The translations under genes were made by a program, and so were the position numbers. This document shows positions 5,010 through 61,047 of a stretch of 64,000 nucleotides of DNA, one piece after another. The DNA is from Isurus oxyrinchus (lineage: Eukaryota), in NCBI GenBank assembly GCA_026770705.1, contig JANJGN010000034.1:5952001-6016000 (forward strand). The letters run 5' to 3'. Each line of letters opens with the position of its first letter. The stretch's first letter is position 1. A model generated the notes under the pieces. That model was not told where the DNA came from. It searched no databases and was given only the letters and a program-made list of their open reading frames with translations.

Positions 5010-5455
5010 TATGCATTGAAATAATGTCGAAAATTGACAACCTATCTAAGATCGAACATTCCTCCTCCCTACAAACTTGAGCAGAAACATTTAGTATGAG
5101 ACTCTAATACACCTGCGGCAGAGGACTGCACTAATGGAATTGAAGCAATTTGATGGACACCTTTAGCTGAGTCACTGTCTGTCCTGTTTTTTTCTTAATT
5201 CGATTCTATGTTTCTGCTGAGGGAGTAAGAGAAGCTATCGGAGTTGCCCTGTGCAAAATGTAATCCTCCATCAATGTCAGAAAACGGTGACTAGGCCAGA
5301 GCTTATTATTGCCTGTGCAGCTGATGGTGAGCGAACTGGATGCAATTTGCTCTGCATTACAGCATTTCTTCAGAAGAATGACGTTGGCTACGAAGCATTT
5401 TTGAAAGCCTAAAATTCATGATAGGCGCTGTTGAAACGCATGTTTTGTTTTCTTC
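5010..5455 (+). mobile_element. Decayed tRNA-derived SINE (DeuSINE/SacSINE1-like); homologues ~32190-32640 and ~58050-58500
   Basis: Recalled family motifs: aaacttgagcagaaa...gactgcact core and 3' tail ttggct...aagcattttt...tgataggcgct...gcatgttttg. Confidence 0.55.
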
Positions 5456-5463
5456 TCTTGCAG

Positions 5464-5490
5464 AAAGAAATCTCGGGGAAAAAGATTCAG
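5464..5490 (+). CDS. Microexon A1, 27 nt (xRNLGEKDS)
   Basis: ttctcttgcag|AAAGAAATCTCGGGGAAAAAGATTCAG|gtaaac; homologues at 32651 and 58511. Confidence 0.85.
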
Positions 5491-8400
5491 GTAAACAAGA
5501 TAATGTATTCTGCACTGCCCTTTCGTGCCAATGTTGGCTCAGCCTGTAACGGTTTCAATATGAGCTTGGATCTCTTGTTTTCAAATGTAACTCGAAATCC
5601 TGATCACTAAGACTTGGCTGACACTGCTGGTTGTCAATAATGCAAGAGTGCCGACCTGCCAGGCCTGTCCTCACCAAGGCGAGATGCTAAAGGAAGATAA
5701 TAATTCCCCACACACCAAGGCATATTTCGATAAACATTTAAGAGTTGCCTCAAATGTATTGGTATGACTGACATTCAAATCAACAGTGATTCATACAGAA
5801 ACCGTGTTTCCTATTCAATTTCTACGTGTGAGAATTGTTGTTTCACTTCCTACATTACAGCAACAACTACAATTCGCAAGAGTCCAATATGGGAGGAAAA
5901 TTTATTTGACATTTTCTGAATTCATGGATGAAATGATATAAATCAAAGCCCTTCATTGTTCAGTTTCTGAAGGTATGCTAATGAGTCTCTTTGCGCTGGA
6001 ACTGTTCCGGCAGCAGTTAATGCTGTAATGAAAATTTTTTTGCAGAAAAACAAATGAAAAGGAATGATAAAATGTTCCTATGCTCATTTTCAGAAATAAA
6101 TGATCTCCAGACTAAACTTCAAAAATGCGGTAGGTATTTAAAATTTGGAAAACCGATGACCTAATTGGAAAAGAATTCGATTTTTACGTGGAAATTATAG
6201 AATTGAACTCATAGCAACGGATAGCCTCCGACACCCGGGGACACTGAATTGGATGAAGTGATTCTGAAAAGAGCCTGATTGAGTAAATGCTGGCAGGATT
6301 TCAGCATGCAGATCTTTAGCTGCTTCCTGAACTGTTGGTCACATTTCAGCAATGATCATTTATAAGATAAAATCTCGATCAGTGAGATTAGGAATATGTA
6401 AGATTGGGTACAGTTAATGTAGTTTTTTATTGCGTCGGCCACAACAATTAAGGCGTTGTGGAGAGTTCGGCTAGAGATGTGTTCAGATTTCTCAGCTCTC
6501 CGCACGTGTATCTACAGGTAAGGAGTACTGTGGGTGCGACAAGCTATAGCTTGAGTGCGTTCTGAGTGAGGTAGCCTTGAGGAGGCTGACTATAGCTGAG
6601 TCATGGAGAGAGATATCCGCTCTTTGTGTGGCCGGCTCTGGCTGAATTGGGAAATGGGTGTGTTTGGCTATGTGTGAGCCTGCTTCTATGTGTGATCCGC
6701 GATGATTCACATCCTGTATTTACTTTGTAATGATATGTGCTGGCCTTTATGCGTAAAACCATGTATCAGCGAGGTCGAATGCAGCTGAGCTTGAGGAAGC
6801 AGGACATCTGTATTATTCTGTGGAATCAACTTAGAGGTCCAATATGATCAGGGTTCATAGACTTAAGTCAGCTATGTGCGATTTTGTGTATCTTTGAGGT
6901 GTAGTATTTAAGTGTGTAACATCCTTTGGTGCGGAATGGCATAGGAAGCATAATTTTTATTTGAAGCCTAATTTGAATGAGGTCAAGCATATGCAATATG
7001 GATAAGTATGAGCTGATATAAATGAGATCAGATCGTATTGAGTTGGAGAAGTGGCAAGTTCAGCTTGGGATAATGTAGCCTATGGATGCAGTTGCACCTA
7101 TGAGAATTACGGTCATGTGGAATCAACTTTTCCCGAAAGATGATGTGAGTGAATTTTGTAATTGTCGATGTTCGGAATGGGTATGTTTGAGTACAGAGGA
7201 TATTGCTTTTGTTTCAGGATGCAGAAAATGAATTGGGCATTGGTAATTTATTGTATGTTTGAGGATGGTAGAGCTTAGTTTTGCAATAGTTACATCGCAT
7301 ACGGGATTGAGATCAGGTAGGAGTTATATCCTGTTTGTTTGGTGTTACGCACGAATGAGATACAGACTTTTCTCATTTATGATTGAACCTGTGGGGGCCC
7401 AGGCCGGGCAGAGGTCGGAAATGAATGTAGATTCTCCTAAAATATTCAGCAGGTGGGGCAATACTTCTGGAGAGAGGAACAAACGTTGAACTTTCAGGTA
7501 GGTGAGCCTTTCCAGCAGGCAGAAAGGGTCACATGGCACAAATTTTGTTAAAGCACAGGAGTGTCGTAGCCAGTATATATGGTTATCCAACAAAATAAAA
7601 GCAGGTTATCTGACCTTTGCAACATTGCGTTTTTGTGAGTGTTGGTAGGGGGCGGTGGGTGGGTTGGCTGTTAGGGGGAGGTGGTGGCTAATTGGCTGAT
7701 GTATCTCATACATTACGTTTTTGGTTACAATTAAAATATTTGTCATTGCGAAATGCTTTGGAATTGCTCTGGTTGTGACGTCAATGAACAAGCACAATGC
7801 TCTACTTAAATTAATACTTGCACACTATTTTAATTTTAATGGCGACATGCTTGCAACATTGAAGCTAAGGACTGGCTTAGCTACATTCAATGTTCACTAA
7901 ATAAAAATTTCCAACATGTGCGGGGCTTCAAATATTTCAGACTCAGTGATTTTATCTTTCACCCGTCGACAGAAGAGAACCTAAAAGCGATAGAGAAAGG
8001 TACTGAACTTAAGCACATCTTGCATTAAAGAGATGACAATTACTTTTGCATTTGATAATTGATTCTATCAGCCGTTCTCCAAAGCGTCTTATTATAAATT
8101 ATTTCAAAAGCAATCAACTGAGCAATCCTGCATGAAGCAGTTTGGCAGAATATATGTGGAGAAAATGATTCGTGGGAGGCATCAAACCCAGCGGATTCAT
8201 AAATAAAAGCATATAATGTAGTATGGTAACTCCAATATGGAATTCATGAACTTTATCTTTATACGGAGAATGTCCAACGTCCGCTATTTGGAAAATGTTG
8301 GAAGTGAATCAAGATAAATGCACGTGAGAAAAAGATTGAAAAGATGATATTAATAGCGTGAAAGGAAGTAGGGTGGAAGGAGTACCATGTGAAATATAAA

Positions 8401-11400
8401 TGCCAATGAGTGGAATGCCTGCCTAATGGCCTCTTTTGGCTCTGAAAATGCAGTATAATGATTCTATTTTGAGCGGTTTTAAATAGGTATTACTAAATTT
8501 ACCGGTCAATAGGCACTCGGCTGATTTACGCTTTTCCTGAATGTAACAGGGCATCGTGTAGGGTATTGAACGGGCAAAAGTTGCATATCACCCGTTTTAC
8601 TTCAGATTCCAAAGTTAGACATTCTCCTGCTGTTAGCTTTTTAGGAAGATTAAATACTTTTCTCAATTCAGAATAAAACAGGATATCTACTTTCTACAGA
8701 ATATTGGAATACGAACTTTGAATCCAAACCTCTAACTAACAAGAATGGCAAAAACTACTTCCACATACGTAGCACGGTTAACATAACAGAACATCGGCAA
8801 GTGCATCAAACTGTCGTATGAACACAACAATTGACACAAGTCCGCATAAGGATAATTTTGAACGCTTGGCAAAAACTTTGATCAAAGGGGCATTAAGAGC
8901 CATCTTAAAAGTGGAACAACGTGCAGCAGGGCATCGATTTGGAAATATTTACTGATTCCGTGATGCAGCAGCTGAAGTCAGTGTTGCAATATTGTAGCAA
9001 ATTAAATCAGTATGCTTCAAATGGCCAGAATTACATTTTGGAGTCCTCAGGTGCGGAAAGAGATTACACAGCTAATGATGATTGAGTCCATTGATAAATT
9101 TGGGACAAGAAGAATAAATTAGCTCTTTCAACCCAAAGCAACCCTTTTCCCTGGGACGTCTTGTATAGCTGTGGATTTGACTTGAATGACTAAAAAAGTA
9201 ATTTTCTGTATGTATTCATTTTATTGAATTGCATGAGGTTTGCTGCACTGCAACAGGACATTTGGTGCTGCAGGCCCAAGTTGACATGCCTTCTCTGCTC
9301 GGGGAGCATTGTATCCACTGACGTCGGATTGCAAATGGGTTAGAATTTAGAAATAGTGGAATTGATTCTAAATGTGCATAGAGACTTGGTTCAAAAAAGT
9401 ACAGAGATAACACATAGATATCGAAGCCAAAGATATGCACAAAAGAAGCTAGAAAAAATACAATGATGAAATGGGAACTATGAGGTCATAACCAATGGCA
9501 TCGAATGTGAAGACGCTGTTTCATTGGTGCACAAAGCAGACGATGATCTGCTGGTCCTGATAGCTCATCGGACCGATGAAAAAGTTTGGTAGTGTAAATG
9601 TAAAGAAAATTCTTCGACTTGCAAGGGAAGTGAGACAGCGTACTTCAAAGCAAAATTACCACTAATGCACCCTATCGTTCTTTTAGAGAACTTTCTTTAC
9701 ACAGTGAAAAATGACACTGTGGAATTCAGAACATCAGGGAGAAGTTGGAGCAATAGTATACGATCGTTAAAAATCACGGATGTGAATAAAATCATTGATA
9801 CAGAGAAAAGAGGAAAATTCAGCGCGTTGTGTCAGCTGTCTGCCCAAGCATCTCTTGCTAGCCCCACTCTCCATTCCTTGTTGCTCAGTAATTGCATCTC
9901 TTCAGATATTTAGCTAATTCCAATTTGAAAGCCATTACTGAATCTCCCTCCGCTAATTTATCTGGCATTGCATTGCAGATCTTAACAATTATTTTATTCC
10001 AAATAAATGTACTTCCTTTCTACACATCCTAATTTTATGTTCGCTTGTTCTTGACTCTTTTACCAACTGGAAAAGTAAACATACAAGCAGACTATCTAGG
10101 GGCAGGGTTAGTTCAGTCTCCCATTCAAGCTCTGCTATTCAGTGAGGCTGCGGGTAATGGTATTGTAACCTCCTGCCTGCGATGATAACCTTTACCCCCT
10201 TGTTATTCATGAATCTACCTAGCTCTGCCTTTACAATAACCAAAGACTCTGCTTTAAATGCCGTTTACGGAAGACAGCTTGGCCTTCTGTGAAGGAAACA
10301 TCTTCTCATCTCTGTTTGTAATGAGCGACGCCTTATTTTTAAATGGTAACTGTTAGTTCCAGATTCTCCCACAAGAGGAAATATCCTCTCCACATCCAGT
10401 AAGTCCATACCCCTCGGGACCTTTATTATTTTGATAAATTCACCTTTACCCTCTTAAACACAATTGGATAAAAGTCAAACTGTCCAACCATTCATCATAC
10501 GACAACTCGACAATTACTGGTAAAGGCCTACTAGACCTTCCCTTCACTGTTTCTAACGCATTTACAAATTTCCTGAAATAAACAGACGAATAAGACACTG
10601 CAGATAGGGGCTCACGGGTGGCCTATAGAAAATAAACTTTAACCTCCCTGCTTTTGAGTTAATTCCCGTCCCAATGAATGATTAAACTCTACAGCTTTCT
10701 TGATTAATTGTTGTGCCTGCATACTAGCCATTTGTGTTTCATGCACTAGGAAACCCATTTCCTTCCGAAACTCAGAGTTCTGCAACCTCTCACCATTTAG
10801 ATAATATGCTTTTATTTTCATAATCCCTGGCAAAAAGGACAATTTTGTCTTTTCCTACTTTATAATCTATTTGCCTGCTCTTTGCACGGTCAATTATCTA
10901 GCAATATCGCTTTATAGCCTCCTCACATTCTCCCCATAACTTGGCTACCTATCGATTTTTGTGTGGTCCGCAAAGTTAGCAACCACAAACCTATCTATGC
11001 AGTCTGTTTCAAAGCCTCATAGTTTGTACCCCTCTATGAAACCTCCTCTCAACCATCTCATCTTAAATTACAATACACCAGTTACTGAAATCTGCCTATT
11101 AAGTCCCTGAACCGTCATTCTTGTATCCGTTTTCAAAAATATGTTTGAAGATTTCAGACCATTCCAAATTATTTGTCTTTGTTTTGACCGTGCAGTTGAG
11201 TTATTGAAAAACCCCAGCCCAAAACTTATAACAACTGTCATAACCTATAATTTTGATTGATATGTTTAACATGCAACTTTAAATTCAGGAAAGAGACCCC
11301 TTGTTCTCGAAAGGTTTCATATTCAGCTAAATAAAACCTTTATTAATTTCCACAGGTTAAATATATGCAGATGGCTACTATTTGCTACGCTCATAACTTT

Positions 11401-14400
11401 TAACAAATTCCCAAACTAATACCCGTTAAGGCAACATGAACTGAAAGAATTAGCCAGGCAAAACAGTTTACGAATTGAAAATGAGGCTATTTTCACTTTG
11501 GGCGTTGTGGAGATAGTTGGACGGTTTCAGCTGCTTTTGATCTCATATTGCCTCTGCTCTACACAGAAAAAAAACTGCTCAAGTTATTCCTAGCATCGTT
11601 CATTGCACGTACATTCTTATTGAATCACTAGCCCCTTTGAACTCCAACTTTTAACAATAAAACACCTTTCGAAGAATGAATTTTATTGGTAATATAATCA
11701 TGTTGCTAGGTGTCTGTTGGCTAGGTGGTAGTTTTCACCTCACTTCTTGAATCTACCATCAAATGCAAATAAAGGCTCTTTATCTCACACATCAAAACTA
11801 CTACACATTAAAGCGCGCAGACTAGATGGCTTCAATCCAATTAAGACACACCCACAATCTAAATCTCTATTTTTGAAATAAAAATATTTACCAATAATAA
11901 TGTATATTTTAATAACTTCATGACAGTCACATTATTGGATACAATGCTCCAGTTGAGGCAGAACCAATGCTTTATAATTATTCATCTCAACATCCTTGAT
12001 TTTGTTCTCAATGCCTTCCTTTCTTAAATTCAGGATCCCATATACGTTCTTTAAAAATTCTTCATCATGTCTGCCCGTTTGAGCGATATGTTCACATAAA
12101 CCGGTATATCGCCACGTTGCTCAGGCCTTTTGATGTGTTACACTTTCGATTCCGTTACCTTCCATTGCTCTGCCGAACAAAATGTGCCAGCTCATGTATT
12201 TTTCCTTTTGAAATAGATTCACCTGCAATCTGCCTCTCCCTTCCACGAGTTGTCCTCTGGCGAAGAGGTGGAGCTGAAGTACACAAATCTGGAAAAAAAA
12301 AAATAGGGCGAACATAACATGAACGGAACTTATGTTAAAAATGAGTTTAAATGCATGCCCAGTAATGTGAAATAGTACAAGTAAGCTTTAGGCCACCAAT
12401 CGTGGGGTGGAATCATGCACATTCAGGATTACTGAGGCATGCCTAAAGTGCAATGCGGGCCAGGAAATTAACCTTGCTGTGTCTGCCGTATATAGAGAGG
12501 ATAGAAGTGGGGCCAAATACTATCTGTATTAGCTGTGCCTTTTCGAGATTCCATTCTATTTTGAAAGCAGACACAGCTATCTATAGCAGACATTTTGAAA
12601 ATTTGTACTTGGAGATAAGAGAGAAGAATGGTTCAGTCACAGAGACATGTCCTGTCTAAAATCCAGTTCGTGGTCTGCAGCTGGTGTGACAAAAATGTTG
12701 ACAAACAAGGAAACTGCATTAAAGAAAATAAAATAACAACATGACGAATTTCAATGGTCGTACTTACGAGTTTGGAGGACGATTAGGCCCATCGATCCTG
12801 CTCTCACTTTCAATTGGATGACGATAACTATGGCTGTGTCCTTAAGTCCACATTCTCGCCTATCCATGAAATCATTTTACCCGTTTGTTCGTCAATGATC
12901 TGTTTACATCTTTGTTCAAAACATAATAATCAACCACACTGCTTCCAGCATTTGCTGGGGGAGAGAGATCCAAAGACAAATAATGGTCTAAGATTCAAGC
13001 ACAGAATCTTCCCAACTTCGCCTCAAACTGGAGACACCTTAATTTTAATATTGACGTTAACAAGGAATGGTGAGTGGAGAAATGTGATAGGTGTTTTTAA
13101 AATAAGAACAGCGAATTCAATCGACCAAACAACAATGGAAGCTATAACCAGTGCCCAGAATCTATGGCATCTACATACTCTAAACGATTCTGGAGAAGAT
13201 ACATAAGTGGAAATATTACGCATATTTCATACCTTGTAAGAAAAATGATGCAACACCGGAATTCTGGTGGAAGTTTTCAGTAATTTCCATATTCAAGAAA
13301 GGGAAATAATATCTTTTTATAATTATAGGCCAGTCTTCTTAAAATCGGGGAAGGAAAATAATGGAATAGCTATTCAATAAGGTTATAGAAGAACAACTAT
13401 CATGGTTAACATGATTCAAACACGCAGATACACACAGCAACAGATATAACATGTGGATATATGTTTTTGTACAAATGGATGGACATAATGTGATGTAGTG
13501 CCCAGTTTTTGAAATGGTCTTGAATAAGCTTTTCCAGAGTGCATCAATGAATGAGGTGTGATAACGTGGAGTCAGGTAACAAGTAACGGAATGGAATGTT
13601 CTAACTGGCTCAAGACGTAAAACAGAGACTGAGAGTAATGTTGGGTTATTTAGAGTGGCAGAAGGTGAACGTGGTTCTCCGCAAGGATATTTGCTATCTC
13701 CACTGATATTTAATATTCTGTTTAATGACTTTGATTGCGGTGTCAGAAAATCAATTTCTAAATATGTGGCGTTCAGCAAAATGGGGAGAATGTCAAAACA
13801 GAGGTGCATTGCAATAAGTTGCACGAAGACTTTGTTAAACTTGGAGAAAGGACAAACAATTGAAAATTAACTCGAATACAGATTTGTGTAAAACATTACC
13901 TTCTGGTAGGAAGCATACTTGTTTTTTTTAAAACGTGAAAGTCTAGGTAGAATGAAGGAAATTAGGGGTCCCGGTCTTAGAAAGCAGCAATCGCTAAAAA
14001 TTTATTCGCTGGTGAGTGGTTAACAAAAGCAAAACAATCACGAGACTTTGTTTCTACGGGATGTAATTTAACTTGCTAACATTATGCGGAAACTAGAAAT
14101 GCATTGGGAATCCCGCAACAAATTGTCTTTACCTAACTGAATAGCATAGATGCATTAAAGAGGAAGCTAGAAAAATATATCAGTGAAAAGATGATAGAGG
14201 CTTCAATGATAAATTTAGATGAGGAAATATAGAAGGAATTTCAAGTGAATCTTTAGCGCTTGATGGGCTGAAATATTACTTTCTATGATGTTCATCCTAA
14301 GCATAACTGCTTTAAATTAAATAACCTAATTCATAATTAAAGAAGGCCGAATAATCAACTACTGTTACTATTTCGAATGTTTATAGCTGTGTAGAGTTAG

Positions 14401-50400: not shown

Positions 50401-53400
50401 GGGCAGATCATCCATTTTATGAATTACAGAGCTAAGCGAGTGTCAACAAGCTGTAAAAGACGGAGGTGAGCAAAACATTCCTGGTATTGCTTTCGATAAC
50501 ATGCCTTATTCTTTTTAAACATTATACAAATATGTTTTTATTCTTTCAAAAATGACGTCATCAATTCAGCCACCCGTTGTTTGTTGATAGGCCCACATTT
50601 GCTTCTGTTGATTTAAAAAAAAATAAATACTTGGCAGAAAGCAAAACAAGCCGACCATCCGTTAGTGGGCAGGATGATTTTCCGATGCTCCATGTGTCAT
50701 GATTATTGGCGTTTTTACTCACAACTGTTGCTTAATCCTGCACACTAAAGGAATGATGAATATTGTTAACTTGATCGATTTTGTACCCATTGGAAAAGTA
50801 TTCTAACCAATAACGAAACTCACCCAATCGTGAAAAATGTTGTTTAACCTTTTTGGTCTGTTGCTCATGTCATCCTGAATAGAAGAAAAACTCAACGCAA
50901 AAGATAAAGGTACCTGAACTGACATATGTTTCTTCAAAAAACCGGAGATTGACAATGGCTGATTGCTTCTTTACATAATTTCTTTTGTTTCTCATGAATG
51001 TTTTATGTTTCTTTTTACTAAGCAGATTGCTAGAACGTACGTTAAGGGTTGGCAGCAGAAGAATCCTATACAAGCGTTCCAGAGTTTCGAGTTACGAGGG
51101 CACATTTTCAGATGCTGTGTCAGACAAAGTTGGAAGACAATAAATAACATGTAAACTAATAAACTGAATAAAGAGATCGCTTAATTCTCCTGAAACAAGC
51201 CAGTGGTAGCAACAAAGTACTCGCTAGCACAGTGAATTTTGAAATATAACGTCTGTGGTGGTTAGGAATGACAGTTTTGCAGATAGAGTTTATGAAGGAG
51301 TTCTTCAGACACCATTGTTGTGTCACAACTTTCGGCCAGAAGCTCCGCGTTCAAGTCTCACTTCAGGACATGATGGCTGTCGAAGCTATTTCCATCAGGT
51401 GGCCGGCTGTATTCATTACCATCTTGTAAAACTTTCCAATGCGCTTGGTGGCAGGCACTAGGAACGGGAGAGATGCTGGCTGGCCAGACTGCAGAAAGCA
51501 ACGTGAAATGACTGTCGTACTTTGCCAAGCATAATTTTAGGCATATCCAGTGGAAATCCATGATCACCAACACCCTCTGAATGCCAGTTACCTGAAAACT
51601 AGGAATGAAATAACGTATGTGGTACGTTGTTCTGGTGGAGGATAGGCTTAGGCATGGGACACTTGATTGGATGGACAGATATTTACCGCTAATTTATATG
51701 GGTCGGACTGCCCTCGGTATCGAATTCCATAGAGGTAAATATGTTTTTTGAATTGCAACTCACTGCAAATTCGTAAGGAAAAAATACAGAGCGCCCTATC
51801 TGGTTGATTGGTGACGTGCCTAACAAGGGAGATGCACTGTGTATCTACTTAAATAATGTTATTGAACAATAATTAATGTGAAGAACTTGGCAAAGTCCAG
51901 CAGAAAAATGAAAATCTGCAAAACATTTGATTCCACGGTTGTTCAGTTCAATTTGCAACAGAAGCACTGTACATGTTACTAATTTAGACTACTGCACCGT
52001 TAAAGATGGAATTATGTGATGTCTTATTTTTTAAGCATGTATAATATGCAAGTAAAATGTCCTAAAACATTCCATGCAACTATTGGATGGCCGTCTCGAG
52101 GACATTCAATATGATGTCTCTGTTTGTTATTGCACAATCTGTACTTACATAAGGTTACCGATGCCTGTGTTGGGCTTACTGCTACTGCAAACCCAGCACT
52201 CTGCTTTTCGTTAAAATGCAGTACGAAATGGCGGCCGAAATTAGACCTCATATTTTTATGAATATGATTCAAGGATCAGCTGAGGTAAATCTTCTGCCGT
52301 CATTTATATATAGCTTAAGTAGGCGCTTCAGGACGAAGCCACCGAAAGTACATATGGTAAAATGGAATGGAGTATGCCGATGTATGGAGCGCGTGGAAGG
52401 ACATAATCCACTTTGTCAAATACATTGACCTGTACTGTAAATTCTGCATAGTACGTCGTGATGGTCGGTGGGAGGGAGAGGGGAAAGGTGCAGAAATTGA
52501 AATAATGGTGATACTCTCACATCTCACCATTTTAGAGATTCTAAAGTGCCAAGAGTCTTTAAAAGATTCAGGTGGGAAATATATGTTTTACTTGTGTAAA
52601 ATAGCCGCTGAACAAAATAATCCTACAATTCTTAGCCCACATGTAGAAGACAGAAATGCCGATCAGTAATTTTATATGTACAGATGTAGATTTTGCGCTT
52701 GTCATATAGTTGTCCAGCATAGAAAGAGGGCAACCTCCACCATGACTGTAACTGCTATATGAAAGTACTGTATCCCCCTCCATCCCTCTCCATCTCTCTC
52801 TCTCTCTCTCTTATCTGCGTTTCAGAAATCTTTTCACACAGCCTTGGAAACACATGTTCTCTACAATAATGTGTTGCTCAACGCAAACCCCCTCCACTCC
52901 ACCCTACCATTTCTCTATGAATAACCATAAAACTCAGTTTCTTTGTTGCTGGTCGTCCTGGACACGGAAACCATTTATGGTTATTAAATTCCTCAAAAAT
53001 GATCTCCCCATCATATTGGGCATAATTATCATAGGTTCCATTAACCTTCTTGCCGTGATCAGGTAAATCTCACCTCCCCTCTGCAGTCTATAAATCTGAC
53101 ATACTGTCGATTAAATCTTCCCTGTGCTCCCAACATGATTTGTGAATCATTGCAAAGCGTGGTGTGTCGAATTTAACTACAATCTCCTAAAGAAGCACAG
53201 ACTGAACAGCAATTGCTGAGAAGCTGCACTGAGTGCCGAAATCAGCAGTGAGTTCTCCGTCCATTATTAATCCCGACTAATGCGTGGTTCTGTTACCTGA
53301 GCTGGGAGTCTGGCTGGGCGTGGAATGGACGGCCATTGTGAAAGGGCCAGTTGCATGCTACAGTCTAGGCCATTATTTACCTCACTACGTAGCACCATCT

Positions 53401-56400
53401 ACAATGTTGTGTTGTGTGCACATTTATGCACGCATCAGTATGCTTGATATAGCAACAGTTAAAATTTCAATCCACCTACAATCTTGTGCCTTATATAAAA
53501 CGTCAACTGTTTCAATGATTCCACAATCCTCCTGTTATCGTCATGCCTTGACAGAAACAAAGCTAGAAGGCAAAGAAAAAGGTAGGCAGTTAAAGGATTC
53601 GCTGTTTTAAAAGGCAGACATTAAAGATTGAGGAACATACCTATGCGTCTTTTGTTTCTTGATTAACTTGTCCAAAATAGCATTTATCATTAATAATCAG
53701 AAGATCGGCTGAATTTGGTAACGGGCTATAAAGGGAGAAAATCTTTCAGCTTGAGGTCTCAGCCAAAATGAAGAGCCAGTAAGACAAGAGTTGAACATTA
53801 ATACAAAACTAACACTCAGGAGGAAAGAGTTAATCCATTAAACGATTAGAATGTGGAATTCGCTGCTGCATGATCCTTGCTTGTACCGAATTTCGTTGCA
53901 TTTTTTTAAGGTGGAGGACACCAAGATCTCACGGAAGTTCAATTGACGTGACTCTCATGGAGTAAATATCGTGTCGTCCACAAGAAAATTTTGGTTCAGC
54001 TTTGTCAACTCCAGATGAATGGATCATGTGCATTGTTAACCAAGCTTAACTCGTGCTTGCAGTCTGGCTTAATGTCTATCACTTCCAATATATGGTGTAG
54101 CCTTCCCTTGAGGACATGTTCGGGCTTTGGCTCCTCACTTCGGAAGGATACATGTTCAGCTCTAAATATCCAGACTGTGTTCCCTCAGGCTGTTTGCACT
54201 CGTTTCAGGGGCAAGTGTGACTGAAATTTCGAGTTGTGCTTTCTCTGTCAGCCAACAAGCTGAATGAAGTGTGAGCTTTAAGGAATGCTGTGTAGCAAAC
54301 GCGGCACAGTTCATGCACTAAATAACAAATCCGACTGATCACTCTTAGCAGAATATTAAAGTGGAATATCTCAAATCTGCATATAGAGGCTATGTAAACA
54401 ACATATACACACACAAAAACATTTTGCCTAATTAAACAAAGGTGCTACGAATTACGCCGAAACAGTTCTAGGTTAACACAAAGTTTAATTTCTCCAACAA
54501 AGAAAATTCACGAATGAAACCATGCCAATACCTTTTGTAAAACGGAGACATTTGTCACCAATAAAATGCGGTTAGTGGAGGAGAGTCCAATAATTCTAGC
54601 TGCATTCCCCTACTCAAGCTCAGTCTCTGACAGCAGTTTAGGTTCCAGACCCGATTGTTAAGAGAATTACTGGGCCAGTTTGATTCCTGTCGGGGAATGG
54701 CGGTATAGAAAATGAAAGTCTTCTGTAATCTGGAGGAGGAAATGTAACTGATAACCTTGACAAATGCCATGATCTTTATAAACCAGTTGCTCTCTTTCTG
54801 TCTCAGAATTGAATGACATTCTGAAGAAGTGCAGTGAGTATTCCAAGAGCCGACAGCCAGTAAGGTGTAAATTTCCCGATTGATTATAAAGCCTGTACTG
54901 CGGAAAGAACTAATCCGTGGACGAAACATGTGCCTTGGGGGACGACATATATTCGAGTGACGGCATTAAAGCACATCCCCAAGGCACGAGGAGAAAATGT
55001 CTGAAAGGAAAGTGCGGTGTTACATTCTTCCCTAAAGATGCACTGAATGTTTTGTCCTCGCAGATTCTAGCTTTTTTGCTGTGACTCAGGAGACAGAACT
55101 TCCAACTTGTGGTCAGAAGGTTGCGAATACAAGTCCAGAATCAAAAGTTGAGCACACGCGCAAATGCTGACATGTCAGTACAGCCCTCAGGCAGCAATGC
55201 ACTGCAGGATGTTCAGCCGTTTAGTCCATAAAACGAGGCGAGGTCTGCCCTCGAACTTGGATGTAAATGACCCCATGCCACATTTGACAGAAACGAAGGG
55301 AAGTTTCAACCGATGTCCTGGTGAATAATTACCCCTGAAATAAACTTCACATCACAAGGGTGTTTCGGTTGTGTTGTGATCCCTGGTGACTCGGGCAGAA
55401 CAAGTATCTTTGCCGAAACAGTTCAGTCAGAGTGATCATTATATCACCAGCTTTAGGGTGGCAGAGGAATCATACGGACTATTGACAGATGATGCCTAAC
55501 ACAGAAAATTGCGATCACATCATTTTGGTGGGAAGGATGAGGCGAGGCAATGGGAGAGAAAGTCTCAAAATCTAAATGGGTTTCACAGTATTTACCCCTG
55601 GATGTCAATGAGCACAATTTGCTCAGGGTGACAAGGCAGGTTGGATGGGGGGTTAAAAAATGTAAACCTGTCCCTAAATTTAATAAAGACGGTCATATAG
55701 CACAAATACATGTAGGTTACAATAAATGTATAAAATACTGGGCGGGCCTCAACTCGAGAATTGTTTCCAATTCGGGGCAACATTCTTGAGGAAACGGTGT
55801 AGGCGTTATTGAGCGTGCAAAAGTATTTTTTAATATTAATTCCAGGAATGAGGAGGTTCACTTACGTAGGTAGTTTGCACAGGTGTTCTTAACCTTGGTG
55901 ATCAGAATATTAACGAATTATCTGATAGAGGTGAACATAATCATTAGGATCCAGGCGAGAGTAAACATGGGAGAGTTGCTCCGTTGGCACGAACGGTCGA
56001 AAAGCAGTATAGACCGAGTTAAGTTAATTTACATCATAAATAGGGGTGCCATGAGAGAGACATTTACTTTTCCAGCGAGAGCTTAACATTTGGAATACAC
56101 TGCTAATGATGTCGTGGAGGAATGTTCTATAGACGTTTTCAACAGAGCATTAAATTATTATATCAAGAAGAGAGTTACTTCGGATGAGTGTTACTTGGAA
56201 CAGCGGGACAGTGGCATGAAATAAAATTAATAGAGAGATCTGGCACCAGCTCGCCGTGGATGGTCTCTCTCTCTCTCTCTATCTGTCTGATCCCCTCTCT
56301 TCCTCTCTCTCTCTCTTTCTCCCTCACTATATGTTATATAGCTGATTAGATAGAAAATGAGACACATGTATAGATAGTTAGATTGATAGTTACAGAAATA

Positions 56401-59400
56401 GATAGATAGATATAAAGATTGATAGATTTATAAATAGATGGAAAGATAGATAGTTAGATAGATAGATAGGTAGATATTTAGATAGAATAATAGTTGATAG
56501 ATTGATAGACAAATAGATAGATAGCAGTTGGGCCTGACAGTATAGGACAATTCTTGAACATTCCTGAATGACACAAGGCATGGTGGTGCCGTAAACAATC
56601 AGTTTTATAGCAATCAATGGCAGCATGACCTAAATAGTCGAGCAGCATAGGCATAAAGTGGCGGATCGAATTTAATGCACATAACTCAGAAGAGATGCAT
56701 TGTGGCAAAACCAATAGAAGAGGGCAAATACCCTTACTGAAACGACCCTTTAGTGTGCAACGAGATAGATAAGGAGCAGAATCTTTTTAAAGTCGTCTGG
56801 AAGTATTATAAGTGTAGCCAGCAAGTTATTCGGATTATTGGGCCTAATATGTGGAGATATTCAGCACAAAAGTAGAAAAGTGTGCATAACCTTTTGAAAC
56901 TCTGGTTATGCAACAGTTAACATTGTTGCTTCCATTTATCAACATATATTCGGAAACAGCGACTGATCATGAAGAGTTTGCTGAAGCAATTGCCAGAATG
57001 GTTGCATTGATGTACTTTGGAAAAATCACTGTTTGTAAAATCAGCAATATATTTGCAATTCCTTTTGCATTTTGTATGGGGAACGGTATTTGCCTGTTAA
57101 TGCGATCAAGCCAATAGTGCTCTGATTGATTTCTTCTGAAAATTTTCTTTTGTCAGGCTGCATTTAATTTCCATGCCCAGTTATGAAATCCAAATTGAAA
57201 AACAATAACAATAACTCAAAGCATGCAGTTACATTTTGCTGTCCATATATCTCTGACAGACTTTTCATGCAGTGCGGCAGAGCATTACTATTTGGCAGTT
57301 TGCTTAAACCATACATCGATTACATAATTTGCTTCTCCCGTTGCTGATTTTGGATCATACTTAGATATCGATGTTGGTTCCGGTTTCAAGATTATGGGCA
57401 CACGTAACAAAACAGAGGTCCCAGAGAAGACATGGAAACAGGATATTAGAACCGAGCGATATACATTTTATGAAAGATTGGCATGGCCATCTAGAAAACT
57501 GAAGTCTTAATTGTGACCTGACAGGAGTCGTTACAATTATGCAAGGTTTTTCTGATGGAGTCCAGAACTTGAGCCTCTAATTGAAATTAAGTCACTAAGC
57601 ATTTTTGGGAAATGCAGAGGATATATCCAGCACAGGATATTTATAATGCGGAATCAGTACTGCAACGTGCACTAATGTAAATGCCAAATTTACATATAAT
57701 GGCAATTGTCCGAGAGAGGAAGCTGTTGAACCACATTCTGATTGGGTTAGTTGCAGCTAGTCGCAGGGGCTCGTGTGGATATAAGAACAGCTGCAGCGAC
57801 TGGATGGGATGAAGCCCTGATTTCATGCTATAAAATGGATTTAAGTCTAAGAAACAATAAACAGGAGATTTCAACAAAACTAGGCCAACCATATAAAATG
57901 AGGCAGGAGCTATTTGAAGGTCCCCTATTGGAAAGACATTTGCCAAAATCCACCGCAACAATGATTGGACCTAGTGCGCTAAAAGTCATAACACTTAATA
58001 CGAATTTAATTGCTTAGTTTTACTGAAACACGGGATCTAAAATCCGCATTGGAATAATGGCTTAAATTGACAACCAATCTAAGATCGAACATTCCTACTC
58101 CCTACAAACTTGAGCAGAAAGATTTATTCTGAGACCCCAGTGCACCAGCGGCAGAGGACTGCACTGATAGAATTGAAGCATTTTAATGGACACCTTTATC
58201 TTTGTCACTGTCTGTCCTGTGAATTGGCGTTTTTTTTTCTTAGTTCGTTCCTATGGTTCTGCTGGGGGAGTAAGGGAAGCTAACAAAGTTGCGCTGTCCA
58301 AAATTTAATCCTGCATCAATGTCAAAAAAATGGTGACAACGCTTCATCTTATTATCCACTTTGGGACTCTATGGTGTGCAAACTGGTTGCAATTTGTTCC
58401 GCATTACTGCATTACTACTGAAGAATTACATTGGCTTCAAAGATTTTATGGAAGCCTTAAATTCATGATAGGTGCTGTTGAAACAAAAGTTTTGTTTTTC
58501 TCTCTTGCAGAAGGAGATCTCGGGGACAAAGATTCAGGTTAGCAACATAGTGTATTCTGCTATACCCTTGTCGTGCCAATGTTGGCTCAGCCTGTAATGC
58601 TCTCAATATGAGCTTGGATCTCGTGACTTCAAATGTAAGTCGAAATCCTGATCACTAGGACTTCGCTGACACTGTTGATCACCAATAGTATAAGAGTGCC
58701 AACCTGCCTCGTGTGTCATCTCTAAGGCGAGATGTTAAAAGAAGATAATATTTCCCCAAACACCAAGGCATATTTTGATAAACATTTAAGGGTTGCATCC
58801 CATGTATTGGTATGACTGACAATCAAATCAACAGTGATTCATACAGAAATGATGTTTACTGTTCAATTTATATTGGTGGGAACTGATGTTTCATTTCACA
58901 CTTGAAAGCAACAGGTACAATTCTCATGAGACCAGTATGGGAGGAAAATGTATTTGACATTTTTTGAATTCATGGATGAAATGATACAAATCAAGGCCCT
59001 TCATTGTTCAGTTTCTGAAGATATGCCAATGAATCTGTTTGAGCTGGATTTGTTCCGGCAGCAGTGAATGCTGTAATGACCTTTTTTTTTAGAAATCTAA
59101 ATGAAAGTGACTGATAAAATGTTCCTATGCTCATTTTCAGAAATAAATGATCTGCAGACTAAACTTCAAAAATGCGGTGTGTAAATATTTAAAATTCAGA
59201 AAATCGGTGAGCTAAGAGGAAAAGAATTAGATTTTTACGTGGAAATTATAGAACTGAACTCCCAGCAATGTAAAGCTTCTGACTGCCCGCGACCCTAAAT
59301 TGAATGAAGTGCTTCTGGAAAAGTGAGTGACTAAGTAAGTGCCGGCAGGATTTCAGCATGCAGATCTTTAGCAGCCTCCTGAAATTCTGGTCACATTTCA

Positions 59401-61047
59401 ATGATTATCAGTCGTAAAATAAGAGCTCGATCGGTCAGATTAGGAATAAGTAAGATTAGGTACAGTTTTTGCCGTGTGTTGTTTCGTTCGGCCACAACAA
59501 TTAAGCGGTTGTGCCGAGTTTGGCTAGAGGTATGTTCGGATTTGTCAGCTCTCTACACGTGTATCTCCAGGTAAGCACCACTCTGGGTGTGACCAGCTAT
59601 GAATGGGATCCGTTCTGAGTGAGGTAGGCTTCTGGAGGCTGAGTTCAGCTGAGCTGGTGGAGGGAGAAGTTCGGTCTGTGTATGGTCGTCTCTGGCTGAA
59701 TTGGGAACTGGGCGAGTTTGGCTATGCTTGAGCCAGCTTCTCGGCGTGATCCACGATGATTCATATCCTGTATTTATATTGTAAATTATAGTTGCTAGCC
59801 TTTATGTGTAAAACCGCGTATCAGCAAGTTCCAATGCAGCTGAGCATGAGGAAGCATGACATTGGACTTACTCTATGGAATCAACTTAGAGATCCAGTAT
59901 GATCAGGCTTCAAAGCTTGAGTCAGCTATGCTTAATTTTGTGTATCTTTGAGATCTAGTCTTTTAGTGTGCAACATCTATTGGTGCAGAATGCCATAGGA
60001 AGCATAATTTTTGTGTGAGGCATAATTTGAGTGAGGTCAAGAATAAGCAATATGGATAAGTATGAGCTGATATAAATTAGATCAGATAGTGTTGAGTTGG
60101 AGAAGAAGCAGGTTCAGCTAGGGATAATGTATGGTATAGATGCTGTCAAAACAATGAGAATAACGGTTATGTGAAATCAACTTTTCCTGTGATATGGTGT
60201 CAGAGAATTTTGTAACAGTCGAAGTTCGAAATGGGTACCTTTGAGTATAGAGGGTATCACTTTTGTTTCAGGATGGAGAAAAGGAATTGGGCATTGATAA
60301 TTTATTCAATGTTCGAGGTGGGTAAGACTCAGTTTTACAATCATTACATCGCATATGGGATTGAGATCTGGTTGGAGTTACAAACAGTTTGGTTGGTGTT
60401 AGGCACGAGTGAGAGACAGTCTTTTTTAGTGTATGATTGGACCTGTGTGTGACCAGGATGGGCAGAGGACATATATTAATGTAAATTCACCTGGAAATAT
60501 TCAGTAGATCGAAGCCATATTTCTGGAGCAAACTGGTGCAGTTTCAGGTCGATGAGCCTTTTCAGCTTGCAGAAATGGTCACATGGTATTTTTTTTTAAT
60601 GCATAGTGGTTTTATAGCTAGTATGTATGGTTATCCACCAAAATAAAAGCAGGTTATCTGGCCTTTGCAACATTGCGTATTTGTGGGTGGTGCTAGGGGA
60701 CGGTGGGCGGGTTGGCCGGTAGGGTGAGGTGGTGGCTAATTGGCTGCTGCATCTCATACCTTACGAGTGTGGTTAGGATTAAAATGTTTCTCTTTCAGAA
60801 AGGGTGTGGAATGGCTGTGGTTGTGATATCAATGAACAAGTACAATGCTCTACTTAAATTAATACTTGCACACTATGATAATGAAAACGGCGACATGCTT
60901 GCAGCATTGCAGTTAAGGACCAGCTTAGCTACATCCAATGGTCACTAAACAAAAAATTCCAACATGGGAGGGGCTTCAATTATTTCAGAATCAGTGATTT
61001 TATCTTTCACCCTTCGACAGAAGAGAACCTAAAAACGATAGAAAAAG
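5464..61047 (+). CDS. Partial multi-exon gene: 31 phase-1 microexons (15/27/36 nt) encoding a long cysteine-containing coiled coil with a 130-aa repeat; both ends lie outside the window
   Basis: Every exon is flanked by AG (usually after a pyrimidine tract) and GT, and is a multiple of 3 in length. Exons recur at homologous positions in the duplication units. The joined 870 nt has no stop and shows 3-4 hydrophobic periodicity. Confidence 0.88.
5525..5955 (+). mobile_element. Decayed DeuSINE-like SINE; homologues ~32715-33140 and ~58575-59005
   Basis: tRNA-like head tggctcagcc...ttcaaat, core ggctgacactgc, tail atataaatcaaagcccttc. Confidence 0.5.
6094..6129 (+). CDS. Microexon B1, 36 nt (EINDLQTKLQKC)
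   Basis: ctcattttcag|AAATAAATGATCTCCAGACTAAACTTCAAAAATGCG|gtaggt; 35/36 identical to both other copies. Confidence 0.9.
7973..7999 (+). CDS. Microexon C1, 27 nt (EENLKAIEK)
   Basis: ctttcacccgtcgacag|AAGAGAACCTAAAAGCGATAGAGAAAG|gtactg. Confidence 0.85.
10180..10990 (-). mobile_element. Decayed CR1 LINE 3' fragment; homologues ~37290-38120 and ~62670-63460
   Basis: Minus-strand fragments YYLNGERLQNSE...GFLVHETQ (10639..10842) and LSYVERLDRLVLYSLGFRRVRGEFI (37437..37694), typical of the CR1 ORF2 C-terminus. Confidence 0.8.
12540..14230 (+). mobile_element. Decayed CR1 LINE ORF2 fragments; homologue ~39600-42010
   Basis: RT motif remnant GSPQGYLLSPLIFNILFNDFDCGVRKSISKYVA (13655..13870), matching CR1 GVPQGSVLGPLLF..INDLD.G....ISKFADD. 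Confidence 0.8.
14702..14728 (+). CDS. Microexon D1, 27 nt (ELYDLQQKC)
   Basis: tttacttttccttag|AGCTCTATGACCTTCAGCAAAAGTGCA|gtaagt. Confidence 0.9.
16177..16203 (+). CDS. Microexon E1, 27 nt (KADLDQKDE)
   Basis: aactcttgcag|AAGCTGATCTCGACCAAAAAGATGAGG|gtaaag. Confidence 0.85.
16330..16740 (+). mobile_element. Decayed DeuSINE-like SINE; homologue ~43860-44270
   Basis: gaggttg...ctagttc head remnant; tttgggagctcgctctgtgtaaaat central motif; gtcctgagaatgtgacaggc tail. Confidence 0.45.
16889..16915 (+). CDS. Microexon F1, 27 nt (EFGKKIGEL)
   Basis: tttcttttacaaaaatgcaag|AATTCGGCAAGAAAATTGGAGAATTAG|gtgagt; weak AAG acceptor but strong donor; conserved in unit 2. Confidence 0.78.
   Translation, partial: NSARKLEN
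17830..17965. mobile_element. Older Penelope-like terminal fragment (homologue ~45360-45500)
   Basis: gaaaatgctggtaaaacgtagctggtctgggagcatctgtg resembles the arm at 29390-29440. Confidence 0.6.
18478..18492 (+). CDS. Microexon G1, 15 nt (ENVKK)
   Basis: tttcctttaccgattcacag|AAAATGTAAAGAAAG|gtatgt. Confidence 0.85.
19081..19116 (+). CDS. Microexon H1, 36 nt (ELDSCQDTVKDL)
   Basis: ttccctccaccttgcag|AGCTAGACTCCTGCCAAGATACCGTAAAAGATTTAG|gtgagc. Confidence 0.9.
20077..20091 (+). CDS. Microexon I1, 15 nt (DKFKK)
   Basis: ttgatttgtttcatag|ATAAATTTAAAAAAG|gtaagt. Confidence 0.87.
20100..21510 (+). mobile_element. Decayed RTE-clade LINE 3' part; homologue ~47650-49060
   Basis: HPKQLLLSKISEDGLTRGGQRAILRDVLKSNMKK (21072..21305) resembles the RTE C-terminal LPKQLLYGEL..G.R.RGGQ.KR..D.LK motif. 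Confidence 0.7.
21870..22750 (-). mobile_element. Decayed CR1-type LINE 3' fragment; homologue ~49400-50290
   Basis: Minus-strand remnants resembling the CR1 3' region (LKVDLMG...; RVIRF.NA...); many stops. Confidence 0.55.
22890..22925 (+). CDS. Microexon J1, 36 nt (ELSDCQQAVKDL)
   Basis: gaatttcag|AGCTAAGCGACTGTCAACAAGCTGTTAAAGACCTAG|gtgagc; paralogous to exon H. Confidence 0.88.
23353..23379 (+). CDS. Microexon K1, 27 nt (EEKLNSKDK)
   Basis: aatcccaaacag|AAGAAAAACTCAACTCAAAAGACAAAG|gtacct. Confidence 0.82.
24988..25023 (+). CDS. Microexon L1, 36 nt (EIIKCQESLKDS)
   Basis: tctcaccattttag|AGATTATAAAGTGCCAAGAGTCTTTAAAGGATTCAG|gtggga. Confidence 0.87.
26005..26031 (+). CDS. Microexon M1, 27 nt (ETKLKGKEK)
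   Basis: catgccttgacag|AAACAAAGCTGAAAGGCAAAGAAAAAG|gtagcc. Confidence 0.82.
27251..27277 (+). CDS. Microexon N1, 27 nt (ELNDIALKC)
   Basis: ttatttctgtcttag|AATTGAATGACATTGCGCTGAAGTGCA|gtgagt. Confidence 0.9.
27515..27790 (+). mobile_element. tRNA-derived DeuSINE-like SINE 5' part; homologue ~55075-55350
   Basis: gtgactcagtag (A-box-like), gtcagaaggttgcgaattcaagtc (B-box-like), ttgagcaca...gctgacac...gtctgccctc...ggacgtaaatgaccc. Confidence 0.65.
27800..28660 (+). mobile_element. Decayed CR1 LINE 3' fragment; homologue ~55360-56230
   Basis: gcctcaactagagaattgtttccaattctg (RPQLEYC.QFW-like) and downstream CR1 3' motifs. Confidence 0.65.
28678..31046 (+). mobile_element. Duplicated copy of the same LINE, 5'-truncated and interrupted by a Penelope-like insertion
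   Basis: ORF fragments AQFGFRQ (29860) and VPQGGVLGPIILSCF (30151); colinear with 1769-3862. Confidence 0.82.
29382..29632. mobile_element. Penelope-like pseudo-LTR inverted pair (about 99-bp arms) with target-site duplication
   Basis: Arms 29383-29481 and 29495-29593 are near-perfect reverse complements around a 13-nt spacer; flanked by ctggattcagcaaa (29368-29381) and ctggatttaccaaa (29633-29646); absent at the homologous site ~2480. Confidence 0.75.
32651..32677 (+). CDS. Microexon A2, 27 nt (KGDLWDKDS)
   Basis: tttttctctcttgcag|AAGGAGATCTTTGGGACAAAGATTCAG|gtaaac. Confidence 0.87.
33279..33314 (+). CDS. Microexon B2, 36 nt (EINDLQTKLQKC)
   Basis: ctacattgtcag|AAATAAATGATCTCCAGACTAAACTTCAAAAATGCC|gtgagt. 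Confidence 0.9.
35157..35183 (+). CDS. Microexon C2, 27 nt (QENLKAVEK)
   Basis: tttcacccttcaacag|AAGAGAACCTAAAAGCGGTAGAAAAAG|gtactg. Confidence 0.85.
42483..42509 (+). CDS. Microexon D2, 27 nt (ELYDQQQKF)
   Basis: ctacttttccttag|AGCTCTATGACCAACAGCAAAAGTTCA|gtaagt. Confidence 0.88.
43720..43746 (+). CDS. Microexon E2, 27 nt (KADLDQKDA)
   Basis: aactcttgcag|AAGCTGATCTTGACCAAAAAGATGCGG|gtaatg. Confidence 0.85.
44418..44444 (+). CDS. Microexon F2, 27 nt (EFDKKIGEL)
   Basis: acaaaaatgcaag|AATTCGACAAGAAAATTGGAGAATTAG|gtgagt. Confidence 0.78.
   Translation, partial: NSTRKLEN
46003..46017 (+). CDS. Microexon G2, 15 nt (ENAKK)
   Basis: tttactgattcacag|AAAATGCAAAGAAGG|gtaagt. Confidence 0.85.
46628..46663 (+). 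CDS. Microexon H2, 36 nt (ELGTCQDSVKDL)
   Basis: tctctccaccttgcag|AGCTAGGCACCTGCCAAGATTCCGTAAAGGATTTAG|gtgagc. Confidence 0.9.
47626..47640 (+). CDS. Microexon I2, 15 nt (DKLIK)
   Basis: gatttttttcacag|ATAAATTAATAAAAG|gtatgt. Confidence 0.87.
50430..50465 (+). CDS. Microexon J2, 36 nt (ELSECQQAVKDG)
   Basis: gaattacag|AGCTAAGCGAGTGTCAACAAGCTGTAAAAGACGGAG|gtgagc. Confidence 0.86.
50883..50909 (+). CDS. Microexon K2, 27 nt (EEKLNAKDK)
   Basis: catcctgaatag|AAGAAAAACTCAACGCAAAAGATAAAG|gtacct. Confidence 0.82.
52536..52571 (+). CDS. Microexon L2, 36 nt (EILKCQESLKDS)
   Basis: tctcaccattttag|AGATTCTAAAGTGCCAAGAGTCTTTAAAAGATTCAG|gtggga. Confidence 0.87.
53555..53581 (+). CDS. Microexon M2, 27 nt (ETKLEGKEK)
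   Basis: catgccttgacag|AAACAAAGCTAGAAGGCAAAGAAAAAG|gtaggc. Confidence 0.85.
54807..54833 (+). CDS. Microexon N2, 27 nt (ELNDILKKC)
   Basis: ctctttctgtctcag|AATTGAATGACATTCTGAAGAAGTGCA|gtgagt. Confidence 0.9.
56263..56525. repeat. (TC)n followed by imperfect (GATA)n microsatellite
   Basis: tctctctctctctctct... then tagatagataga... arrays read directly. Confidence 0.95.
58511..58537 (+). CDS. Microexon A3, 27 nt (KGDLGDKDS)
   Basis: tttttctctcttgcag|AAGGAGATCTCGGGGACAAAGATTCAG|gttagc. Confidence 0.83.
59141..59176 (+). CDS. Microexon B3, 36 nt (EINDLQTKLQKC)
   Basis: ctcattttcag|AAATAAATGATCTGCAGACTAAACTTCAAAAATGCG|gtgtgt; its only difference from B1 is synonymous. Confidence 0.87.
61021..61047 (+). 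CDS. Microexon C3, 27 nt (EENLKTIEK)
   Basis: tttcacccttcgacag|AAGAGAACCTAAAAACGATAGAAAAAG|gtactg. Confidence 0.85.

Follow-up and report, generated by a model that had tools for sequence, protein, structure and literature searches.

The 64,000-nucleotide stretch of Isurus oxyrinchus DNA analysed here (the window) is very probably the middle of one very large, real gene whose chain of micro-exons ends in a B30.2 exon. In contig positions, marked C34 for contig JANJGN010000034.1, the window is C34:5,952,001-6,016,000 and the gene, called gene 1, occupies at minimum C34:5,084,784-6,396,339, at least 1.31 Mb on the + strand, with the B30.2 exon at 6,395,819; plain numbers are window positions. 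We propose that gene 1 is transcribed as one unit exceeding 1.3 Mb, that its 320-400 exons (mean 29 nt) equal or outnumber titin's 363, and that it encodes a half-micrometre, cysteine-stitched rod carrying a B30.2 sensor tip. In this proposal gene 1 is one of three tandem giants, its rod length is both evolvable and open to change by splicing, and it belongs to an ancient, undescribed family of sharks, rays and chimaeras. To this reading we assign a probability of about 0.45, and the same to the full mechanism set out below, in which the product is soluble and cytosolic.

Micro-exons of the window and their repeat unit

An earlier note on this DNA had reported a hidden gene of 31 phase-1 micro-exons with AG/GT ends, 870 nt in total, joined in a stop-free frame. 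An independent rebuilding gave the same 31 exons (14 in each of two units plus three, from 5464 to 61047, 870 nt), with AG..GT at 31/31; two of them, one per unit, are doubtful. Read at phase 1, the spliced frame is free of stops, whereas the two alternative frames contain 32 and 19; it is composed of K 20%, E 13.5%, L 12.5%, D 11.8%, Q 8.3% and C 4.8%. None of the long open reading frames of the window yields this protein, as the note had stated. By self-BLAST the window is a tandem triplication, with 2.3 copies of a unit of ~27 kb, and it lies inside a ten-unit intragenic array at C34:5,884,258-6,163,692. The introns are 0.815-0.840 identical between all array units, which points to a single duplication burst. 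The units (self-BLAST, array map) and the exons are as follows; all exons are of phase 1.

2483..29642 (+): repeat unit A, ~27 kb
29643..57011 (+): repeat unit B
57012..64000 (+): repeat unit C, start
5464..5490 (+): unit A, 27-nt exon RNLGEKDS, AG..GT in 10/10 array copies
6094..6129 (+): unit A, 36-nt exon INDLQTKLQKC, AG..GT in 10/10 copies
7973..7999 (+): unit A, 27-nt exon ENLKAIEK, AG..GT in 10/10 copies
13777..13803 (+): unit A, doubtful 27-nt exon KWGECQNR, GT-AG in 7/9 copies, weak acceptor, reduces the heptad fit
14702..14728 (+): unit A, 27-nt exon LYDLQQKC, AG..GT in 10/10 copies
16177..16203 (+): unit A, 27-nt exon ADLDQKDE, AG..GT in 10/10 copies
18478..18492 (+): unit A, 15-nt exon NVKK, AG..GT in 10/10 copies
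19081..19116 (+): unit A, 36-nt exon LDSCQDTVKDL, AG..GT in 10/10 copies
20077..20091 (+): unit A, 15-nt exon KFKK, AG..GT in 10/10 copies
22890..22925 (+): unit A, 36-nt exon LSDCQQAVKDL, AG..GT in 10/10 copies
23353..23379 (+): unit A, 27-nt exon EKLNSKDK, AG..GT in 10/10 copies
24988..25023 (+): unit A, 36-nt exon IIKCQESLKDS, AG..GT in 10/10 copies
26005..26031 (+): unit A, 27-nt exon TKLKGKEK, AG..GT in 10/10 copies
27251..27277 (+): unit A, 27-nt exon LNDIALKC, AG..GT in 10/10 copies
32651-32677, 33279-33314, 35157-35183, 41548-41574 (doubtful), 42483-42509, 43720-43746, 46003-46017 (+): unit B, exons 1-7, AG..GT, phase 1 stop-free
46628-46663, 47626-47640, 50430-50465, 50883-50909, 52536-52571, 53555-53581, 54807-54833 (+): unit B, exons 8-14, AG..GT, phase 1 stop-free
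58511-58537, 59141-59176, 61021-61047 (+): unit C, first three exons, from the same reconstruction

The doubtful exon, at 13777-13803 in unit A and 41548-41574 in unit B, has a poor acceptor. Among the copies in the array one has a GC donor, one has lost the acceptor, and one unit has no copy at all; the heptad fit is 0.319 per residue with the exon and 0.367 without it. The exon may be false, and the unit, given as 130 aa in the earlier note, is therefore either 121 or 130 aa long. Some exons also had longer alternative ends or starts shifted at NAGNAG sites, but these were weaker or carried stops and were not retained. The copy of a 36-nt exon at 33279-33314 ends in C and not in G, and its splice sites are weaker than those of its nine siblings. 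At a unit junction, positions 29380-29596 hold an inverted repeat of a short dispersed element (86% over 218 nt), the B/C junction at 56264-56524 contains TC and ATAG microsatellites, and junctions across the array vary in their inserted elements.

Several lines of evidence argue that the micro-exons are real. A generic splice-site scan over 414 kb gave candidates on the + versus the - strand in the proportions 67 to 2 for 27 nt, 32 to 3 for 36 nt and 23 to 8 for 15 nt. The AG..GT ends of the 13 core exons are intact in 130/130 copies over the ten units; intronic sites survive in all ten units at 134/914 AG and 87/848 GT, a contrast inflated by the fact that the exons were partly chosen for intact sites. 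Identity among array copies is 0.907 in exons and 0.827 in introns, and dN/dS is 0.55 in frame against 0.77 and 1.06 off frame, from pairs that are not independent; the in-frame value is itself modest, and single exons range widely. That all 130 core copies have remained intact and stop-free after 17% intron divergence argues that each unit has been under splicing and coding selection. Two exon-motif patterns searched against the whole 4.98-Gb genome matched exclusively on the + strand of C34 (9/9 and 6/6 matches, of which 5 and 3 were at new places), and reversed-pattern controls for both gave 0 matches. More than 120 exons of the same type lie outside the array. Among eight uncalled homologous places outside it, five are dead copies that have lost a splice site or the frame (C34:5,091,461; 5,268,498; 5,269,903; 5,275,121; 5,764,781), two are intact and one is an alignment offset; the dead copies are exon birth and death within gene 1.

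Extent of gene 1, its terminal exon and its relatives

Exons of the same type continue on the + strand beyond the window in both directions. The 5′-most exon seen is at C34:5,084,784, and the upstream block consists of 21-nt heptad exons. The claim that only three exon lengths occur is correct within the window; other parts of gene 1 also contain 21-nt and rare 24-, 30- and 33-nt exons. Two censuses were made over 908 kb. The first, with a composition-trained model that recovers 115/130 known exons, gave 246 calls on the + strand against 10 on the - strand; the second, with a position model trained solely off the array (held-out recall 106/130), gave 229 against 2. The union of the calls and the known array exons amounts to 253 exons, 7,302 nt and 2,434 residues, mostly in 27- and 36-nt exons (18-19 of the 253 are of 21 nt; mean 29 nt). 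Extrapolation across a further 422 kb brings the estimate to 322-403 exons, varying with the threshold and the recall correction. On the basis of genomic collinearity, all these micro-exons would be joined in one mRNA. The earlier note, whose exons spread over 55.6 kb, put the size more than twentyfold too low. The widest gaps between calls, 27-29 kb, lie near 5.26-5.36 Mb, the first of them containing three of the dead exon copies; these gaps and the 422 kb outside the census make a gene boundary or an internal promoter possible. One intron of gene 1 harbours, by eye, a 720-codon retroelement frame with adjacent GIY-YIG-like frames (C34:5,385,503-5,387,662, -).

The note had suggested walking the flanks for, among others, a B30.2 exon, and one closes the chain:

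C34:6,395,819-6,396,339 (+): terminal B30.2/PRY-SPRY exon, phase 1, with stop codon, PF00622 E 1.8e-13, 380 kb downstream of the window

Candidates of 24, 30, 21 and 27 nt precede it, an AATAAA follows ~660 nt after its stop codon, and a single exon call is found in the next 59 kb. The PRY of gene 1 is below Pfam detection. The best solved-structure match of the exon is the B30.2 domain of BTN3A1 (E 6.8e-20). Words of this exon were present at 0.29-0.36 in six runs of unstated kind, which bears neither way on expression. Of 455 candidates 150 were scored, and none of these is a further close B30.2 exon in the interval from 4.817 to 6.396 Mb; the start of gene 1 lies between 4.817 and 5.085 Mb. 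No leader-like exon was found in the 28 kb 5′ of gene 1; no signal peptide, IgV or IgC exon in the scanned 5′ DNA, and no RING or B-box in the motif-scanned 5′ DNA (the V-set search scored 150 of 3,319 candidates). The N-terminal parts of the chimaera and skate models, used as genome queries, gave no match.

In the same set of 150 scored candidates, close B30.2 exons lie on C34 at 2.71 (-), 3.47 (-), 4.82 (+), 6.40 (+) and 7.50 Mb (+), and two more on a second contig, C21. The region C34:6,455,840-7,496,959 is a near-whole duplicate of gene 1, in which the order of 21-nt exons, 27/36-nt exons and B30.2 exon is repeated, the last being intact and 92% identical to that of gene 1. The duplicate copies gene 1 from 5,091,193 on, so that the break at its 5′ end falls within the 21-nt block. 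It may have become a separate gene that starts anew, or it may serve gene 1 as an alternative 3′ half. Its first exon candidate opens with an in-frame ATG. A 75-nt candidate for the first exon was rejected, as it belongs to a dispersed repeat for which there are 10,899 candidates; upstream of the duplicate, two leader-like candidates were unconvincing. Within the duplicate, ~19 tandem copies ~6 kb apart, homologous to window positions 24700-25300, occupy C34:7,016,113-7,170,603; this array is an independent amplification. Between gene 1 and the duplicate an open frame resembling a GPCR fragment was seen by eye (C34:6,415,857-6,416,288, +). A third family gene, of at least 0.7 Mb, is delimited by motif matches and its B30.2 exon at C34:4,107,333-4,817,018 (+); five motif matches at 4.11-4.60 Mb show that this gene, whose end lies at 4.82 Mb, is likewise a giant and that its exon types follow one another as in gene 1. 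On C21 a very large cluster of B30.2 exons at 82.9-118.2 Mb holds most of the 150 listed, together with butyrophilin-type IgC exons, and is a candidate expanded butyrophilin/TRIM region.

The closest protein relatives of gene 1 are from cartilaginous fishes. One search with the terminal exon gave GCC29436.1 (54%, domain alone) and another gave 1,757 representatives, of which 150 were listed; XP_038671249.1 was recovered by an alignment search, a first search for longer proteins having given no match. A quick tree was built from 67 of the 172 domains stored, after isoform duplicates and weaker matches had been dropped. In it gene 1 belongs to a 12-row clade (SH-aLRT 98, stem 0.96) that is separate from the TRIM and the Ig-B30.2 rows; with two Ig-B30.2 rows in the tree, its domain does not group with those of butyrophilins and sits in a separate long-stem clade. 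The 10 named rows are all from sharks, rays or a chimaera, and a second tree of 30 rows, unfinished and without support values, gave the same clade. Their automatic names are TRIM39-, TRIM58- or TRIM69-like, A33-like or nuclear-pore-anchor-like. In 8/8 models longer than the domain, SPRY/PRY alone exceeds the Pfam cut-off, with PRY weak at most. These eight have neither RING nor B-box, signal-peptide, IgV or IgC matches; TRIM_CC gave no match in the related models. Peak 19-residue hydropathy before the B30.2 domain is at most 1.59 in the relatives, a value that for the chimaera model covers the N-terminal 60 windows, and no transmembrane segment was detected. The idea of a hidden, mis-annotated coiled-coil gene of cartilaginous fishes is borne out. 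TRIM- or Tpr-type names are given to proteins in which Pfam detects no such domains.

As in the clade, a coiled coil with ELxxCxxxL-type repeats lies directly upstream of the B30.2 domain. The window frame matches the 1,697-aa chimaera protein XP_042192744.1 (41 bits, E 4.7e-6; 100 shuffles gave at most 25.8), and its direct BLAST against four shorter relatives stayed at the shuffle level. A low-confidence single-sequence fold of XP_038671249.1 (945 aa; pLDDT 55, B30.2 unfolded) models it as helical from residue 2 to 761. RefSeq isoforms of three relatives differ by internal pieces of 9, 6 or 9 residues, which may be read from their sequences as skipped micro-exons. The related models may be 5′-truncated. 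Rod similarity alone is not specific, since an unrelated coiled-coil B30.2 protein of a teleost, the tarpon, lies outside the clade and yet scores with the profile of the 36-nt exons. This protein, XP_036374758.1 (named TRIM39), combines what looks like a signal peptide with a coiled coil of 500 residues and a B30.2 domain, lacks a RING, and is a teleost analogue. A 55-kDa 'A33-like' protein of shark skin mucus cannot be tied to this family from the available part of its description (PMC10707392).

The proposed rod and alternative readings

The 36-nt exons follow the consensus E-L-x-K-C-K-x-x-L-K-D-L and the 27-nt exons E-E-K-L-K-x-K-E-K. A pair of both makes 21 residues, that is, three heptads (L a, C d, L a, L d, L a, K d), and runs of 27+27 or 15+36 nt disrupt the register. 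The heptad score is 0.367 against a shuffled maximum of 0.086, all core cysteines (58/58) are at position d, and 2/60 cysteine codons have changed, against 111/1,080 residues. The 1,209 residues of the array do not include a single proline; N-glycosylation sequons number 1 against 4.8 expected, which is uninformative because of the repeats. With 0.1485 nm for each residue, a rod of ~3,100-3,900 residues would, if one straight helix, span 460-580 nm. In the model, two chains would form a parallel, in-register dimer, like butyrophilin tails, presenting paired B30.2 domains at one end. These domains are predicted to bind a protein ligand, and the rod would serve as a cytosolic spacer or tether, as in a RING-less TRIM or an enterophilin-type protein. 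Dimerised B30.2 domains act as recognition modules in TRIM20, according to the available part of PMC4455283. Since all exons are symmetric and of phase 1, the reading frame survives the duplication, loss or skipping of single exons and of blocks, which makes the rod length tunable. It would have been tuned in evolution through the ten-fold amplification of a block and the death of exon copies, and probably also through alternative splicing.

A somewhat unlikely alternative is that the same gene encodes a secreted protein, with a phase-1 leader exon, d-position cysteines that stitch a disulfide-linked fibre, and an extracellular B30.2 domain, in mucus, plasma, or a reproductive or sensory gel. 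Cysteines in d-d positions form unstrained interchain bridges, and the strict placement and rare change of the core cysteines suit such links. Three of the eight related models have hydrophobic, leader-like N-termini; two of them, skate XP_055510696.1 and chimaera XP_042192744.1, belong to the subclade of gene 1 and are loosely alike, and the tarpon model joins an apparent signal peptide to a coiled coil and a B30.2 domain. However, the other five models start with hydrophilic residues, the relatives contain only 1.5-2.1% Cys, the tarpon protein falls outside the clade, and the 28 kb searched 5′ of gene 1 gave no leader. Moreover, a hydrophobic start can arise from reading through a pyrimidine-rich acceptor; this is likely for XP_060706632.1, given that its next residues match the internal rod of XP_038671249.1.

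An unlikely reading makes gene 1 a receptor of butyrophilin/BG type, with an IgV domain, a transmembrane segment and an enormous cytoplasmic heptad tail ending in B30.2. The earlier note had named such a tail among its candidates, and the B30.2 exon and the block of 21-nt heptad exons place this lead in the right neighbourhood. The 5′ block of 21-nt phase-1 heptad exons, and the exons of 21, 24 and 27 nt before B30.2, are as in BG and butyrophilin genes, in the available part of PMC4046983. BTN3A1 is the best solved match, and the N-terminus of gene 1 lies beyond the 5′-most exon seen. Against this, Ig and transmembrane regions are absent in 8/8 related models, the B30.2 domain sits on a long branch away from the tree's two Ig-B30.2 proteins, and butyrophilin-type IgC matches cluster on C21, with none at C34 4.8-5.1 Mb among 110 candidates.

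It is quite improbable that the locus consists of several shorter transcription units or uses internal promoters, with no full-length giant and with an array that is partly passive baggage of duplication. Such an arrangement would accord with the lengths of most related models (218-945 aa), with the dead exon copies, with the 422 kb outside the census and the 27-29-kb gaps, and with a downstream duplicate that starts inside the 21-nt block and still has its intact B30.2 exon; the 130/130 intact, stop-free core copies and the single terminal domain exon per chain speak against it. That the exons belong to a pseudogene, or are chance words resembling splice sites which tandem duplication has multiplied, is hardly credible. 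Although the array copies do not count as independent observations, the bias in strand and in length, the restriction of stops to the other frames, exon conservation above that of introns, the 120+ non-array exons, the genome-wide specificity of the motifs and the annotated relatives all argue against it.

In the part of the literature covered, mainly beyond subscription papers, no description of this family was found. What is new is how large the gene is, that a block was amplified ten-fold while none of its core exons was lost, and that three giants stand in tandem. If expressed as we propose, gene 1 would be among the most exon-rich vertebrate genes, nearly all of its exons being micro-exons, and may rival titin. 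It would be a test bed for how hundreds of 15-36-nt exons are defined within kilobase introns, and for the evolution of protein length through amplification of symmetric exons. The family marks a blind spot of annotation, with models shrunk to the last exon or named TRIM or Tpr. It would represent a third mode of B30.2 use beside TRIMs and butyrophilins, and it bears on the origin of the butyrophilin/BG tail of heptad exons plus B30.2 in early jawed vertebrates.

Comparison with known systems

Tetherin has an N-terminal transmembrane segment, a short stalk and a C-terminal GPI signal. The tetherin-like stalk suggested by the earlier note is not supported, as the C-terminus of gene 1 is B30.2/SPRY and not a GPI signal. 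The nearest systems are the chondrichthyan models that share its B30.2 clade: XP_042192744.1 ('nuclear-pore anchor-like', chimaera, 1,697 aa), XP_038671249.1 ('zinc-binding protein A33-like', 945 aa), XP_038672306.1 and XP_038668997.1 ('TRIM39-like'), XP_055510696.1 ('TRIM69-like'), XP_042191566.1 ('TRIM58'), XP_069775384.1 and GCC29436.1. Like gene 1, they have a K/E/L/D-rich coiled coil with the ELxxCxxxL motif directly before SPRY, except that GCC29436.1, the closest, is the terminal exon alone. At 178-1,697 aa they are shorter than the rod of gene 1, for which at least 2,434 residues were called, and their names suggest a RING/B-box or Tpr homology of which Pfam finds neither.

The available parts of the sources cited below allow comparison with published systems. 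Class IV TRIM proteins resemble gene 1 in a coiled coil followed by B30.2 and in paired B30.2 tips for pattern recognition (PMC4455283). However, the TRIM scaffold is antiparallel and ~17 nm long (PMC4455283), whereas the rod of gene 1, with more than 2,400 residues, is estimated at 460-580 nm. Loss of RING is noted among fish TRIMs, in a text whose available part does not mention the family of gene 1 (PMC3137616). The related models differ from class IV TRIM in that none has a RING or a B-box. Enterophilin-1 is a soluble, extended leucine zipper that ends in B30.2. It has a role linked to SNX1/EGFR (PMC13749957). The protein is mammalian and far shorter, and is likened to gene 1 by layout. 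Human titin, with 363 exons, is called the gene with the largest number (PMC12198301); gene 1 would be comparable in exon count if the estimate of 320-400 holds, but titin is an unrelated protein with large exons in a gene of 283 kb, against at least 1.31 Mb.

In chicken BG genes an IgV-like region and a transmembrane segment are followed by a tail of 13-36 exons, each 21 or 24 nt long (PMC4046983). They share with gene 1 a coiled coil made of many tiny heptad exons, a varying exon number and a tandem multigene cluster (PMC4046983); gene 1 differs in its hundreds of exons, mostly of 27 and 36 nt, in its B30.2 end, and in that the part of it covered shows neither an Ig nor a transmembrane region. 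Butyrophilins (BTN3A1 and kin) have phase-1 heptad micro-exons and a C-terminal B30.2 domain as gene 1 does (PMC4046983, PMC12841164), but few heptads, together with Ig and transmembrane regions, and the B30.2 domain of gene 1 belongs to another clade. Cartilaginous fishes have butyrophilins, and the available part of that account mentions no giant form (PMC12841164). By analogy, gene 1 would resemble the heptad-B30.2 tail of these proteins, enormously extended.
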